Origin: a virus
Lineage: Duplodnaviria > Caudoviricetes
Virus record (IMG/VR): IMGVR_UViG_3300010885_031309
Length of the DNA: 64,000 bases
Strand: one strand, 5' to 3'
Below, piece after piece: positions 5,981-57,288 of this stretch (its first letter is position 1; the number at the start of each line of letters is the position of its first letter). The notes under the pieces were generated by a model. That model made no database searches. It was given only the letters and a program-made list of their open reading frames with translations, and was not told where the DNA came from. Made by a program: the position numbers and the translations under genes.

Positions 5981-6991
5981 ATGACTGACCGCAAGATGGC
6001 ATGGATTGCCAAAATAGACGAAGTTTCTCCTATTCCTAATGCCGACTCAATTGAGGCATATCGTGTTGGTGGATGGTGGGTAGTAGACAAGAAAAGTGCC
6101 TACAAAGTCAACGACATCTGCGTATATGTTTCCGTTGACAGTTGGGTGCCCACTGAACTAGCACCATTCTTGACCAAAGGTAGTGAGCCACGTGAATACA
6201 ATGGTGTCAAGGGTGAACGTCTGCGTACTGTGCGTTTGAGAAACACTCTATCACAAGGTTTGCTTATTCCTGCACTGGGTACTTTTTCAGAAGGCACGGA
6301 TATGACTGAAGCACTTGGCATCCAAAAGTGGGAAGCACCTGTTCCTGCGCAATTGGCTGGTCAAGTTCGTGGTATGTTCCCTTCGTGGGGTAAGCGGACT
6401 GATGCAGAACGGTGTCAGAATATTACCACAGAAATTACAGAAGCATACAATAATGATGTAAAATTTGAGGTTACCATTAAGTTGGATGGAACTTCAATGT
6501 CTGCGGGGATTGGACCAGATGGTGAATTTCATGTATGTTCACGTAATCTTTCATTGAAACTGGATCAAATTGGAAACACTTATGTTGATGTAGCCAAGAT
6601 GTATAACCTAGAAGACAAGATGCGGTCACTTGGACGACCACTTATGATTTCTGGGGAGTGCCTCGGCGAAGGAATTCAGAAGAACCAGGAAAAGATTAAG
6701 GGGCATGATTTCTATGTGTTTAACATTTGGGACCCTGTTCGCGGAGAATACATTTCAAGTGAAGAGCGTATGATTATTGTACGAGAACTTGGTCTTAAGC
6801 ATGCTCCAGTAATTCATGATTCTGTTACCCTGCGTGATCTAGGATTGGAAACAGTTGAACAGATTTTGAAGTTCGCTGAGGGTCCATCTTTGAATGCAGC
6901 ATCTCGTGAAGGTGTGGTATTTAAGTCAATTGATGGGTCATTTATGTTTAAGGCTGTGAGTAATTCATGGCTAATCAAACATGGAGAGTAA
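5981..6991 (+). CDS. ATP-dependent RNA ligase (DRB0094/Rnl2-like, N-terminal OB-like domain)
   Basis: Motif I KLDGTS, SRN, GE, FNIW, EGVVFK, FKAVS; N-terminal IPNADSIEAYRVGGWWVV. Confidence 0.85.
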   Translation: MTDRKMAWIAKIDEVSPIPNADSIEAYRVGGWWVVDKKSAYKVNDICVYVSVDSWVPTELAPFLTKGSEPREYNGVKGERLRTVRLRNTLSQGLLIPALGTFSEGTDMTEALGIQKWEAPVPAQLAGQVRGMFPSWGKRTDAERCQNITTEITEAYNNDVKFEVTIKLDGTSMSAGIGPDGEFHVCSRNLSLKLDQIGNTYVDVAKMYNLEDKMRSLGRPLMISGECLGEGIQKNQEKIKGHDFYVFNIWDPVRGEYISSEERMIIVRELGLKHAPVIHDSVTLRDLGLETVEQILKFAEGPSLNAASREGVVFKSIDGSFMFKAVSNSWLIKHGE

Positions 6992-6993
6992 AC

Positions 6994-7197
6994 ATGCGTG
7001 ATGATGAAAAAACACTGAGTGACTATCCTTTAGGATCCGTGTTCCTTCTGGGAGTGTTTCTGGTTATGGTGTTTTGGGCAGCAGTGTTCCTAGGATGGGC
7101 TGTTGCTCACAACACTGTTGCAAAAGAGTGTCAACGACTTGGTTCATTCTACGTGGGCAACACTGTATATGAGTGTAAAGCAAAGACAGGAGAGTAA
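6994..7197 (+). CDS. Small membrane-anchored protein
   Basis: One long hydrophobic helix; GGAG RBS. Confidence 0.55.
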   Translation: MRDDEKTLSDYPLGSVFLLGVFLVMVFWAAVFLGWAVAHNTVAKECQRLGSFYVGNTVYECKAKTGE

Positions 7198-7199
7198 AC

Positions 7200-7418
7200 A
7201 TGAGTGAAGATATCCAAGACTCGGGCAGTAGCAAGGCCCGAGCACAATTACAAAAGATTGACGAGCAGATTGCTGCCTACAACCGTAAGGTGTCCAAAGA
7301 GCGCTCTGTTGACATTGAGCGACATTGGCGGGCACGTGCTGAACGCAAGCGTCAATTGATGATCAAGGTGCGTGAACTGTTCACTCAGTCTGAACTTGAT
7401 GATCTTGGATTGTATTGA
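7200..7418 (+). CDS. Hypothetical coiled-coil protein
   Basis: GGAG RBS; 72 aa. Confidence 0.55.
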   Translation: MSEDIQDSGSSKARAQLQKIDEQIAAYNRKVSKERSVDIERHWRARAERKRQLMIKVRELFTQSELDDLGLY

Positions 7419-10213: not shown

Positions 10214-11539
10214 ATGCCTGCACAATGGATTGAACGACTAAATGCTTCAGATAGTCGTCTACATAAAGAAGATGTACTTAAGCAGGCTCTGACTGCTGCC
10301 ACACTGGGTGATTATGGAAGTCAAGTGTTTCTTGGTCTTACAAACGCGGCATATAATCCAATGATTACTTGGGGAATCAAGCAAGTACCCAACACGGTTG
10401 GAATTGTTGATGCGGAAAACCCATGGGATGACTTCAATGCTCTACTGAATGATCTTAGATTGCGTGTACTCACGGGTAACGCGGCACGAGACGCTATCTC
10501 AAGTATGAGTCAGCGTTTCAACAGTAATGATTGGAACGATTTTTGTGCAGCAGTTCTACGCAAAGACTTGCGCTCTGGAATCAGTGATAAAACTATCAAT
10601 AAAGTTTGTAAGGGCACTAATTATCAAGTTCCGGTGTTCTCTTGTCAATTGGCAACCAGTTGTGAGGATCGCCCAGAAATGCGCGGTCCAAAGCGTCTTG
10701 AGCCTAAACTGGATGGTGTTCGCGTACTCATGCTATGTACTATTAGTGATGATGGCGGCCGATTGGTCACTAGCTACAGTAGAAATGGAAAAGTATTTGA
10801 AAACTTTGGACATATTGAAGAACAATTGATGTCAGTTATGGAACCGCTATCTGTTAAGACTGGTTGTACTAGCTTTGTGCTGGATGGAGAGGTTGTAGGA
10901 AATACATTTCAAGAATTGATGAAGCAAGCCAGACGCAAAGAAAATGTTCAGGCTACTGATAGTACATTTCATGTGTTTGACTTTATTCCACTCACAGACT
11001 TTATTAATGGATACTGGAACGCTAAGCTTAGCAAGCGACTGCTAGTTTTGGAAAAAATTCGCAGCGTTATTGAAAATCTCACAAGTGTAAAATTACTATC
11101 GCATATCAAGGTTGATCTTGATACTGCATCTGGACGAGAACAGTTAGACCGTTATGCCAATGATTGCGTTGCTCAAGGATTTGAAGGAATCATGATCAAA
11201 AATCTTGATGCTCCTTATGAGTGTAAACGCAACACATTCTGGCTAAAATGGAAACCTACCATTACTGTAGATCTGAAAGTAATTGACATTGAAGAGGGAA
11301 CTGGTAGAAATATTGATCGTATGGGAGCATTGGTATGTTCTGGAACTGATCAAGATAAACAGATTTCGGTAAATGTCGGTAGTGGTTTTAGCGATGAGCA
11401 GCGACATGATTTTTGGATCAATCGTAATTTTGTAATTGGTCAAACGGCCGAGATTCTTGCTGATGCTGTAACAAGAAATCAGGATGGTACATATTCACTT
11501 CGGTTTCCCCGTTTTTTTAGATTTCGTGAGGATAAATGA
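10214..11539 (+). CDS. ATP-dependent DNA ligase
   Basis: EPKLDGVR (motif I), SRNGK, LDGE, FDFI, EGIMIK, WLKWK, VGSGFS, SLRFPRF. Confidence 0.93.
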   Translation: MPAQWIERLNASDSRLHKEDVLKQALTAATLGDYGSQVFLGLTNAAYNPMITWGIKQVPNTVGIVDAENPWDDFNALLNDLRLRVLTGNAARDAISSMSQRFNSNDWNDFCAAVLRKDLRSGISDKTINKVCKGTNYQVPVFSCQLATSCEDRPEMRGPKRLEPKLDGVRVLMLCTISDDGGRLVTSYSRNGKVFENFGHIEEQLMSVMEPLSVKTGCTSFVLDGEVVGNTFQELMKQARRKENVQATDSTFHVFDFIPLTDFINGYWNAKLSKRLLVLEKIRSVIENLTSVKLLSHIKVDLDTASGREQLDRYANDCVAQGFEGIMIKNLDAPYECKRNTFWLKWKPTITVDLKVIDIEEGTGRNIDRMGALVCSGTDQDKQISVNVGSGFSDEQRHDFWINRNFVIGQTAEILADAVTRNQDGTYSLRFPRFFRFREDK

Positions 11540-51006: not shown

Positions 51007-52392
51007 TTAGACAACAGCATATCGTGGCTGATTGATTGTGTCAAGCATGATACTTTGTGGTGTAAACTCGCCTGCTGCAAGTATGCTTTTCATAATAGCA
51101 GGACTAAATCCACTGACTAGCGCAACGCCACTCTTGTTAAATTCAACCGGAACATTACTGTGACTACTGAGATTCCAGAATACAATTCGTGGCACGCTGT
51201 ATCCAGCGGCCTCATACTTGCGTTCAATCATCCGAATTGCGCTATCATTATGTGATGTACACTCGTCAAATTGCATGTCACTTAAAATCAAAATATACTT
51301 TGGCATATCCGATGCTGACACCCGCTGATTGACGGCAACGTTCAACACCGCTTCAAAAGCACCATGCAAATTAGTGCTCATGCCCCAATCAGCCGACTGT
51401 AGTTGGCTGCATTTGCTTAGGATATCTCCTCGCAGGACTTCCAATCGTGTATTCTCACTGAAGGTCAAGAACATATCCTTGAATGGTCCACGATTCTTGT
51501 CTGCACAATATAAACCAAGTGCCACACTGATGTCAATGCACTGTAGATTACGATTTCCACCAACAGGACAACACATGCTGCCACTAACATCTACCATAGG
51601 CAGCACATTAGCATCAGACATATAGTTAGGCAATGCCTCCCATTGTGCTGCGGCAACCTCCGCATCTCCTGCACCAATGCTGCGCACAACATCATGTGGG
51701 TATACGGCAGCAGCATTTACCTTGGCTTGTCCAGTCTTTAGTGCCGTCTTGTATGCAGTATACGCAACTGAAGCATTGCGACTAAAAGCCTTTTGATAAC
51801 GTGCAGCCGCCACGCTTGGCACATGACTAAAGTTGATATTATCCCAATCCTTGGCACACATTTGTGTTTCTACAACCTTAGTCAAATTGACCAGTGTCTT
51901 ACGATATTGCTTTGGAGACATACCAAGATGATCGCGCAATTCAATTGCGATATCACCCTTTCTCGGTAGCCACTTAGCACACAGAGCTTGATTATCTGCT
52001 AGTGCTGCGTCAATCATGTCGTATGCCTTGGTCTTGAATTCCTTAGTTTGGAACACAAGTAGATCATCCCAACGTCCCCATTCTGGAACATGCGGTAGTA
52101 CCCGATCCAATGCTTCTGGATGTAGATTTTCCAAATGCAACAGAATGTCACGGAAAATCTGCCGTTCTCCAGCACCACCACGAACATCCCGCGCCCATGC
52201 AGCAACACGAAGTGCTAGTGTGCGATCAAACTGAAATGCTCGTTCAAACTCTGGGACAATTTGCTTTCCACGACTTGCGCCGATCTTGTAAAAAAGATCC
52301 ACCACTGGGTTTGTGGTTGACTCTAGTGCCGCCATACCGTTAGTGGTACGTGCTTCTACTACTGTGCTTTGTACTGCTTGTGCGAATGTCAT
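51007..52392 (-). CDS. TROVE-like/vWA protein (DUF2828-like, Ro60-related architecture)
   Basis: RDVRGGAGER, GRWDDL, AKWLPR, VDVSGSM (MIDAS), FLTFS, STNL, ILSDMQFD, FWNL, SGFSP. Confidence 0.85.
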   Translation of the reverse strand: MTFAQAVQSTVVEARTTNGMAALESTTNPVVDLFYKIGASRGKQIVPEFERAFQFDRTLALRVAAWARDVRGGAGERQIFRDILLHLENLHPEALDRVLPHVPEWGRWDDLLVFQTKEFKTKAYDMIDAALADNQALCAKWLPRKGDIAIELRDHLGMSPKQYRKTLVNLTKVVETQMCAKDWDNINFSHVPSVAAARYQKAFSRNASVAYTAYKTALKTGQAKVNAAAVYPHDVVRSIGAGDAEVAAAQWEALPNYMSDANVLPMVDVSGSMCCPVGGNRNLQCIDISVALGLYCADKNRGPFKDMFLTFSENTRLEVLRGDILSKCSQLQSADWGMSTNLHGAFEAVLNVAVNQRVSASDMPKYILILSDMQFDECTSHNDSAIRMIERKYEAAGYSVPRIVFWNLSSHSNVPVEFNKSGVALVSGFSPAIMKSILAAGEFTPQSIMLDTINQPRYAVV

Positions 52393-56144: not shown

Positions 56145-56234
56145 TGGCGGATAGTGAGGGATTCGAACCCCCGAGGATATCGCTACCCTAACTGCTTAGT
56201 AGGCAGCCGCCATCGTCCACTCGGCCAACTATCC
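56145..56234 (-). tRNA. tRNA-Ser with anticodon ACT (ACU), CCA encoded
   Basis: GGATAGT/ACTATCC acceptor, G73, GCTGC-CTACTAA-GCAGT anticodon arm, long variable arm, TTCGAAT T-loop. Confidence 0.85.
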
Positions 56235-56312: not shown

Positions 56313-56634
56313 TGGTGCCCGGAGCCGGACTCGAACCGGCACGCCTTTTACGGCGAGGGATTTTAAGCGTGTTGTCTCAAAGTTTCCTAAGAGCACGGAC
56401 TATCTCTTTACCTTCAACATTACTTGTTAAGGTAGTGGGCGTTCATGCTGGTTATTAAGAGGGCTTTACCTCTCCAGTAGTCTCTACACCTTCAAGGAAT
56501 GTATTCCTTGCTTGGCTCGCGATTGCCATTTTACAGGCTCTCCCGAGTTAACCCACAGTTTACTCAAACATTTCTGTCTGAGGGGGACGGGCTTTCTGGT
56601 CCTCCCTTGTGTCTACCTATTTCACCATCCGGGC
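56313..56634 (-). tRNA. tRNA-Leu(TAA) interrupted by a group I intron (exons 56603-56634 and 56313-56367)
   Basis: GCCCGGA/TCCGGGC acceptor, A73-CCA, AGGGA/TCCCT anticodon stem, CTTAAAA loop, long variable arm. Confidence 0.88.
56368..56602 (-). mobile_element. Group I intron (235 nt) at tRNA position 31/32
   Basis: P2 CAGACA-GAAA-TGTTTG, P3 GTGGGT/GCCCAC, P7 GACTA/TAGTC, P7.1, P8, P9, P9.0 GTG/CAC followed by the omega G. Confidence 0.88.
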
Positions 56635-56637
56635 AAT

Positions 56638-57288
56638 TTAATTTTTAAAACTCTTTCCGTGTTTCCTTGTTTCATTATACTCAATCACATATTTTTTCCA
56701 TAGCATAGTCAATCTAGGCTGTGAAGTTTTTATGGATTTAGCAAACGAAGTCACAGATTTGCAATCTGATTTAAGAAAAGTTTCATATAATTGATATGCC
56801 AATTTTCTTGATTCTTCATTTCTATCTGTTAAATAGTCTTCTCTTGATCTTAAATTTTCTTTATCAAAATTTATAACTCTACCTAACTCCCATCCTTCTT
56901 CAACTTTGAAATTTTTTGGGACTCTTTTTGACAGTCTCAACTTTTTATTGTGAATCCAAAAAGAGCCATATTGAGAATTATTTTCTCCTGATTGAGCAAA
57001 AGACATTGCTTCAGATAATTTTCTGCGTAGCCAGCCATATAATTTGTTGGATGGTCTGTCTGGAATCATCATTGCGGCTGCCTTTACCAAGGCAAAATTT
57101 TTTGGATACATTTTGACTAATAGTTGATGAGCAACATAATGTTCTTCAGGTGTTAATGGTGCCAAATTAGAAGGATCATCAGATCCACCCAAACATTTGG
57201 GAACAATATGATGATACTCAACATAATCACTTAATGATCTTGATTTAGCCTTTTCAATCAAAAGATTGTAGTGTTTTACATAATTCAT
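56638..57288 (-). CDS. Free-standing HNH homing endonuclease
   Basis: YVEYHHIVPKCLGGSDDPSNLAPLTPEEHYVAHQLL; GENNSQYGSFWIHN. Confidence 0.88.
   Translation of the reverse strand: MNYVKHYNLLIEKAKSRSLSDYVEYHHIVPKCLGGSDDPSNLAPLTPEEHYVAHQLLVKMYPKNFALVKAAAMMIPDRPSNKLYGWLRRKLSEAMSFAQSGENNSQYGSFWIHNKKLRLSKRVPKNFKVEEGWELGRVINFDKENLRSREDYLTDRNEESRKLAYQLYETFLKSDCKSVTSFAKSIKTSQPRLTMLWKKYVIEYNETRKHGKSFKN

Follow-up and report, generated by a model that had tools for sequence, protein, structure and literature searches.

The window, here the whole 64,000-nucleotide stretch of phage DNA that was analysed, carries on its minus strand (56634-56313) a tRNA-Leu(UAA) gene with an encoded CCA that is interrupted by a group I intron. 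The insertion site follows A31, with which the anticodon stem ends, and precedes C32, the complete loop CUUAAAA being kept in the 3′ exon. Comparison with related sequences points to a functional intron of a previously uncatalogued class, characterized by an A31/C32 site with no U-G wobble at the 5′ splice junction; the probability of this reading is put at about 0.7. A new splice-site design is the option favored by the comparative data, because the 31/32 site and an A at the −1 position, A(−1), are kept in 30 genes along with a covarying core, P1, P9.0, and cloverleaf. The parts of the gene are as follows:

56603-56634, minus strand: tRNA-Leu(UAA) 5′ exon, G1 to A31, 32 nt owing to a long D loop
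56368-56602, minus strand: group I intron, 235 nt, with an IC3-like core and an extra P7.1-type hairpin
56313-56367, minus strand: tRNA-Leu(UAA) 3′ exon, comprising C32, the rest of the loop CUUAAAA, a long variable arm, the T arm, and CCA
Landmarks, minus strand: G1, 56634; A31, 56603; terminal G, 56368; C32, 56367; CCA end, 56313

Once joined, the exons form a cloverleaf with a long variable arm, a seven-nucleotide loop CUUAAAA, and an encoded CCA, as expected of a tRNA-Leu(UAA); the intron carries no ORF. The Rfam model Intron_gpI (RF00028) matched 56376-56624 (−) with 53.5 bits (cut-off 50; E = 1.4e-12), a match gained only by a 1-kb search with lax filters, and ARAGORN with introns allowed returned tRNA-Leu(taa) with the intron placed after gene position 32; a whole-window Rfam scan with fast filters and ARAGORN at its default settings did not call the gene. 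Together with 30 relatives, these matches uphold the group I intron at 31/32 of tRNA-Leu(UAA) that a first-pass annotation of the window had proposed. The 5′ exon is without U throughout its last 12 nt, and thus no junction that yields a seven-nucleotide anticodon loop can provide a U-G wobble, the absence of which that annotation had also recognized. [quoted passage not shown] In the present introns the −1 base is an A, paired to U, in 30 of 30 sequences, and the insertion site of the window intron is A31/C32, not the classical 34/35.

Relatives were sought by pattern scans of public phage-contig, metagenome, and bacterial-genome collections. Two close relatives came from the first pattern scan, and further members were obtained through a 21-nt core motif independent of the exons; the eight viral members recovered by the exon-independent core pattern likewise read A31^intron...G^CUUAAAA, where ^ marks a splice junction. 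A pattern running from J8/7-P7′ to the 3′ junction recruited 10 viral loci, 22 metagenome loci, and seven bacterial genomes, the last all beta-proteobacteria and including the cultured Curvibacter microcysteis RS43 and C. cyanobacteriorum HBC61. The common architecture was found in 34 complete genes, which represent 31 distinct sequences, and 30 of these were taken into the alignment, A1. Since the search pattern fixed C32 and the terminal G in 29 fetched loci, the invariance of these two bases is partly by construction. The first base of the intron is G in eight, A in seven, and U in 15 of the 30 sequences but C in none, and A31 is not the same base as the terminal G; the junction therefore cannot be slid. 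An exact intron-free join of these exons was present in at least 120 viral contigs and in two of 301 genomes of the Curvibacter family. DNA of the window phage is present in freshwater metagenomes, and among the phage genomes of INPHARED neither the locus nor its surrounding 12 kb had a near relative; the only matches were partial ones to the cores of introns from crAss-like and other phages. Against RF00028 the Curvibacter copies scored 46.8 and 47.4 bits, just under the cut-off of 50. Each of the two Curvibacter genomes also contained one more match to the group I intron model, at G001:C3:244551-244819 (locus L162; 77.2 bits, above the cut-off of 50) and at G002:C6:186012-186218 (locus L165; 30.8 bits, E = 1.1e-5).

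The secondary-structure model was scored on A1 against 500 shuffles and against controls in which partner strands were slid by 1-3 columns. Standard pairs occupied 93.1% of cells, and 53 of 73 pairs showed compensatory changes; the covariation score was 0.486, compared with 0.171 for shuffles (none of the 500 reached the observed value) and ≤0.083 for the slid controls, in which the paired fraction fell to 35-43%. The elements of the core are:

56563-56582, minus strand: P2, 8 bp with a GAAA loop, compensatory changes at 8 of 8 pairs
56551-56556, minus strand: P3 5′ strand, partner 56435-56440, 99.4% paired, 4 of 6 pairs compensatory
56435-56440, minus strand: P3 3′ strand
56518-56545, minus strand: P4 (56541-56545 with 56518-56522), J4/5 and J5/4, and P5 (56525-56538)
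56488-56516, minus strand: P6 and P6a, with P6a 100% paired and 7 of 7 pairs compensatory
56478-56482, minus strand: P7 5′ strand GACUA, partner 56398-56402, invariant in 30 of 30
56398-56402, minus strand: P7 3′ strand UAGUC
56448-56477, minus strand: extra P7.1-type hairpin between P7 and P3′, a subfamily signature
56409-56434, minus strand: P8
56369-56396, minus strand: P9.0 (56394-56396 GUG with 56369-56371 CAC) around P9 (56376-56393, GAAA loop)
56368, minus strand: terminal (omega) G of the intron, directly after the P9.0 3′ strand in 30 of 30

Compensatory changes were found in each of P3, P4, P5, P6a, P8, and P9 across the 30 sequences; every pair varies in P2, P6a, and P9, and P7 and J8/7 are invariant. 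Covariation thus bears out the P3-P9 core with its P3/P7 pseudoknot that defines a group I intron, and P3, P4, P7 (GACUA/UAGUC), P8, P9, and P9.0 (GUG/CAC) all lie where the first-pass annotation had placed them. Five combinations occur in P9.0 (GUG/CAC, AUG/CAU, GGG/ACC, GCG/CGU, and AAA/CUU); because these covary and the terminal G always follows directly, the 3′ splice site is fixed, and the omega G at 56368, which had been read from P9.0 in the window, stands. With respect to IC3 architecture, P2 is present, P2.1 and P5abc are absent, and a 30-nt hairpin stands between P7 and P3′; a hairpin in that place is a trait usually ascribed to subgroup IA. Within P4, pairs 1, 2, 4, and 5 covary and the third (56543/56520) is a G-G mismatch in 30 of 30, a position that is G-C in 67 of the 80 IC3-type introns in which it could be placed unambiguously. 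The mismatch was considered as a marker of wobble-less introns and rejected, as one viral intron (L034) combines G-G with an apparently canonical GGU/GCC P1. The tRNA is conserved in the same manner: joined at A31^C32, the cloverleaf of the 30 relatives is 99.8% paired, with compensatory changes at 14 of 20 pairs, including all seven of the acceptor stem. This covariation indicates that ribozyme and tRNA are both under selection.

The 5′ splice site was read from the pairing between the exon and the guide strand, for which the features are:

56603-56606, minus strand: P1 exon strand GGGA (tRNA 28-31), partner 56584-56587, splice site after A 56603
56584-56587, minus strand: P1 guide strand UCCC, which is UCCG wherever the exon is CGGA
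56588, minus strand: guide-strand G (G46), a G in 30 of 30, facing the splice site without a partner
56589-56602, minus strand: P1 extension hairpin (intron +1 to +14), GGAC-CAGAAA-GCCC

Exon and guide read GGGA/UCCC in 24 sequences and CGGA/UCCG in six and are unpaired in none, and position 28 covaries with the guide and, by the same switch, with tRNA position 42. A31 forms a Watson-Crick pair with the guide U at 56587, a pair kept in 30 of 30; since GGGA (28-31) pairs with UCCC, the base before the cut is the A of an A-U pair, not the U of a U-G pair. As P1 uses bases of the anticodon stem, it excludes that stem. In single-sequence folding of the P1-P2 segments, A31 paired with U47 in 25 of 30, and G46 was unpaired in 16 of 30. 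The invariant G at 56588 is without a partner in the exon; in canonical introns the guide G in this place pairs with U(−1). The first-pass annotation saw no wobble G in the guide; a guide G does exist and is invariant, but it has no exon U to pair with. Intron +1 usually pairs with N45, the base beyond the invariant G (UA in 15, GC in seven, AU in four, other in four), and the G is thus a one-base bulge facing the scissile phosphate; apart from this closing pair the sequence of the P1 extension is freely variable. An A precedes the invariant G in 19 of 30 sequences, and the G and this A complement C32 and U33, so that the guide AG-UCCC is complementary without a break to the joined exons GGGA^CU. 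Such a continuous complement across the junction corresponds to P1 plus P10 of ordinary group I introns.

Covariation between G46 and N32 was also sought, and no U32 variant bearing the intron was found among the loci, most of which had been fetched by a pattern that fixed C32; one extra locus (L168) was a chance match in coding DNA. Metatranscriptome contigs from two runs (X22 and X24) that matched the Curvibacter locus L156 showed a tRNA-Leu(UAA) with the same 5′ exon and the loop UUUAAAA, that is, with U32, and intron-free U32 alleles thus exist in related organisms.

By the favored reading, free guanosine would attack after A31; the 3′ exon would then replace the 5′ hairpin of the intron, with C32 pairing to the invariant G to form P10, which could be extended by U33 pairing to the A present in 19 of 30 sequences; and attack on the phosphate after the terminal G would leave the normal seven-nucleotide anticodon loop CUUAAAA. 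We infer from the guide complementarity that G 56588 serves P10 as its first pair, with C32. More speculatively, the bulge may also supply the local irregularity normally given by the wobble pair, so that the bulged G would replace the wobble G as the feature read by the core. That a widespread ribozyme clade sets its 5′ site in this way, by an A-U pair and a bulged G with no wobble, the same G then capturing C32, is a proposal to which we give slightly better than even odds.

Four other explanations were weighed. A sound core might be combined with a weak, wobble-less 5′ site at the same 31/32 junction, so that removal of the intron would depend on a general factor of the cell (an RNA chaperone, for example, or a tRNA-binding protein) or on a slow first step or hydrolysis. 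Replacement of the U-G pair is known to leave the Tetrahymena intron impaired or inactive, and the P1 described here has only four exon-guide pairs, which compete with the anticodon stem for the same bases. Williams (2020; bioRxiv 10.1101/2020.01.27.920355) likewise gives such impairment or inactivation for the Tetrahymena intron, and non-wobble cleavage-site pairs are reported there to lower or abolish the activity of model ribozymes. Any such factor could not be specific to the phage, however, as the same design occupies the only tRNA-Leu(UAA) match in free-living bacteria, and no dedicated protein is indicated by the sequence: there is no ORF in the intron, and the HNH endonuclease gene that lies next to the tRNA in the window is missing from the relatives L001 and L002. 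This explanation is regarded as unlikely, although as the most credible of the four. Least credible is the reading of the gene as a tRNA pseudogene with a dead or decaying intron, an idea that draws on the non-canonical 5′ site and on the failure of default tRNA and Rfam scans to find the gene; against it stand the strong compensatory covariation in ribozyme and tRNA across 30 lineages, the invariant P7 and J8/7, and the position of the intron in the sole tRNA-Leu(UAA) match of two bacteria. The argument of the first-pass annotation that the covarying core speaks against decay thus extends to all 30 sequences.

The two remaining explanations concern the 5′ site itself. A cut one base later would put intron +1 opposite the invariant G and would produce an eight-nucleotide anticodon loop, or call for later trimming. 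The G stands 6 nt upstream of P2, the spacing of the wobble G in canonical phage tRNA-Leu introns at 34/35; +1 is U in 15 of 30 and could wobble with it; and a related class, Leu.1Ug, uses GGAU/GUCU with U32 as its −1 base. The 6-nt spacing was set aside as a ruler for a later cut, because the corresponding spacing in the Azoarcus intron is, we presume, different. In the other sequences with a purine at +1 (G in eight, that of the window included, and A in seven) a wobble with the G is impossible, and the partner with which +1 covaries is N45 (UA, GC, AU) and not the G. It is implausible that a sole-copy tRNA would carry an eight-nucleotide loop whose extra base varies, the guide is complementary to GGGA^CU and not to GGGAN^C, and no contig with an eight-nucleotide loop occurred among the RNA contigs on the Curvibacter locus. 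A later cut is therefore considered improbable, more so than removal by a host factor. More doubtful still is the P1 drawn in the first-pass annotation, AGGG(A)GGAC/GUCCCCCU, in which A31 is bulged, or mismatched with C, at the scissile phosphate. It is the minimum-free-energy fold of the window precursor and of five of the 30 relatives, all in the subgroup of the window; in the window's own sequence it is near-isoenergetic with the conserved fold (−16.4 versus −16.1 kcal/mol); a gap of 0.3 kcal/mol in its favor does not allow thermodynamics to choose between the two. Over 30 sequences, however, it was only 66.5% paired, and 193 of 500 shuffles did as well. In 20-22 of the 30 sequences the intron half of this P1, GGAC/GUCC, does not hold; it is confined to the GGAC subgroup of the window, introns outside it beginning UCAG, UCGU, AAGG, ACAA, and others. 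The fold also fails in the six CGGA sequences. Its 3′ strand overlaps the covarying P2 by two bases and would cost P2 one to two pairs; in L001 the first three P2 pairs read UCU/AGA in place of CUC/GAG. Within the same subgroup, L001 and L147, which have four Cs, fold to A31-U47. The pattern scans found the 31/32 site and A(−1) kept in 30 distinct genes and the bulged A not conserved, and the first-pass annotation's suggestion of a new subclass with different splice-site recognition is favored by comparison even though the structure on which it was built, with A31 bulged and not paired to U 56587, was wrong.

Splicing was considered in the Curvibacter genomes and in metatranscriptomes. When both genomes were scanned with a general pattern of the tRNA-Leu(UAA) 3′ half, the split gene was the only match, a count that rests on a sequence pattern and not on full tRNA annotation. 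UUA codons are unreadable without tRNA-Leu(UAA). Because the split gene is the only match, Curvibacter probably excises the intron in vivo with no phage protein involved; a need for phage proteins such as RNA ligases, raised as one option in the first-pass annotation, is accordingly disfavored for this type of intron. Of the two RNA ligases counted there, one is an RNA ligase (5981-6991) and the other is an ATP-dependent DNA-ligase-type enzyme (10214-11539). In six metatranscriptome runs only small parts of the window's stretch were present. On the Curvibacter locus L156, which carries the gene of C. microcysteis RS43 at 6947-7275, four RNA runs contained the unspliced form, and one RNA contig joined 6978 to 7223, exactly A31 to C32, skipping 244 nt, with five mismatches downstream; several other RNA contigs represented intron-free tRNA-Leu with different variable arms. 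Given the mismatches and the differing variable arms, the intron-free RNA contigs may stem from intron-free genes of other organisms.

The classical intron of tRNA-Leu(UAA), Leu.3Ug of subgroup IC3, interrupts the same host gene and has in common with the present introns the core motifs GAGCCAAG in P6 and AAGGUGUAGAGACUA at J6/7-P7, GNRA loops on P2 and P9, the terminal G, and mimicry of part of the anticodon arm by the guide. It differs in lying at 34/35, after U34, with a wobble U-G (exon ACUU, guide GAGU), whereas the present intron lies at 31/32 and has A(−1) in an A-U pair, an unpaired guide G, an extra hairpin between P7 and P3′, and a P1 drawn from the anticodon stem. The survey of Williams (2020) tested every one of the eight positions around the anticodon loop in 81,441 genomes; for bacterial tRNA introns it reports the combination of U(−1) and terminal G in 98.5% of raw calls, and its sole non-U class consists of 72 Leu.3Cg introns, apart from four cases put down to errors. 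Like the present class, Leu.3Cg, from proteobacterial tRNA-Leu(CAA), is conserved and, at the 5′ site, has a Watson-Crick pair in place of the U-G wobble, splicing being predicted in both; unlike it, Leu.3Cg has C(−1) paired to the guide G at 34/35 of tRNA-Leu(CAA), whereas here the anticodon is UAA, the −1 pair is A-U, the guide G is left over, and the insertion is at loop position 0. The text and seed alignment of that survey contain no A(−1) 31/32 class, and the alignment has no position-0 entry, and no sequence in that seed alignment carries the present hairpin motif.

Closer in structure are the P7.1-bearing seeds Lys.2Ug, Phe.2Ug, Asn.4Ug, and Leu.1Ug, which, in that seed alignment, possess an extra hairpin after P7 and a similar J8/7-P7 stretch, GAUAGUCC. 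Leu.1Ug, moreover, has a guide G followed by the complement of anticodon-stem bases (ucggau/gucuga), and differs in that U32 is the −1 base, with a U-G wobble at 32/33; on sequence, the present class looks like the Leu.1Ug design with the U missing from the exon. No sister of the Leu.1Ug type at 32/33 (G^UUAAAA) with the present P7′ motif was found in the viral contigs. The phage tmRNA T-loop introns (L126 and L129) and the cyanophage psbA intron (S-PM2 type; L124 and L128) have a 21-nt stretch in common with the present introns, from J6/7 through P7 into the P7.1-type hairpin, and therefore belong to the same intron subfamily; both differ in their host genes, and the psbA intron has a P1 that is, as read here, a canonical CUACAU/GUGUAG with U-G.

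Further observations were made on these and other phage introns. The tmRNA genes with a T-loop intron of the same subfamily lie at L126:9403-9954 (−) and L129:13106-13646 (−), and their P1 has an internal U-G (GGGUUCG/CGAGCCC); UCG is repeated at both junctions, giving four equivalent placements, of which the one with a terminal G has a G-C 5′ site and the one with U(−1) ends in A. For a tRNA-Thr(UGU) with an IC3 intron on the minus strand of one viral contig (L045), U(−1), a terminal G, and a seven-nucleotide loop could not be reconciled on reading; with a terminal G the junction would again be 31/32, with G31 as the −1 base and A32 in the loop. Among the matches listed for viral contigs L003-L121, canonical 34/35 introns of tRNA-Leu(UAA) predominated, and the other hosts, as called by ARAGORN, were Arg(CCU), Lys(CUU), Asn(GUU), Pro(UGG), and “Tyr(AUA)”. 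Group I introns are thus common in phage tRNA genes, although a 2014 review stated that none were known, the phage introns of that time all being in protein genes (Hausner et al., 2014; PMC3984707).

The surroundings of the gene include the following:

56638-57288, minus strand: free-standing HNH homing-endonuclease gene (phrog_655, E = 1.5e-47; weak Pfam HNH match)
5981-6991, plus strand: RNA ligase, PF09414 with a PHA02142 OB domain
10214-11539, plus strand: ATP-dependent DNA-ligase-type enzyme
51007-52392, minus strand: 461-aa DUF2828/DUF7788 protein, named RNA-binding protein in PHROGs

The HNH gene, whose phage homologues are annotated as homing endonucleases, ends 3 nt upstream of tRNA-Leu(UAA), an arrangement that recalls free-standing endonucleases targeting intron insertion sites, and it is possibly linked to the mobility of the intron. 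The RNA ligase, the ligase-type enzyme, and the PHROGs RNA-binding protein together suggest that this freshwater phage has a set of genes for RNA repair or for tRNA-related functions. A tRNA-Ser gene called by both ARAGORN and Rfam (51.7 bits) was also found 78 nt downstream of tRNA-Leu (56145-56234, −), with the loop CUACUAA and the anticodon ACU, which has an unusual A34.

The textbook account of how a group I ribozyme finds its cut site rests on the U-G wobble. Among catalogued bacterial tRNA introns, the only natural exception found is C(−1); the A(−1) class adds a different insertion site and a leftover guide G, and its conservation, accompanied by covariation, extends over phages and cultured bacteria. 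For Curvibacter, the split gene seems to be the only route to tRNA-Leu(UAA). Programs that look for tRNAs and introns on the expectation of U(−1) and of an anticodon-loop site miss genes of the 31/32 type. If the proposed mechanism is true, the bulged G would solve, in a second and independent way, the recognition problem for which nearly all other group I introns use the U-G wobble, and the class makes the question of how the site is chosen without a wobble directly testable.
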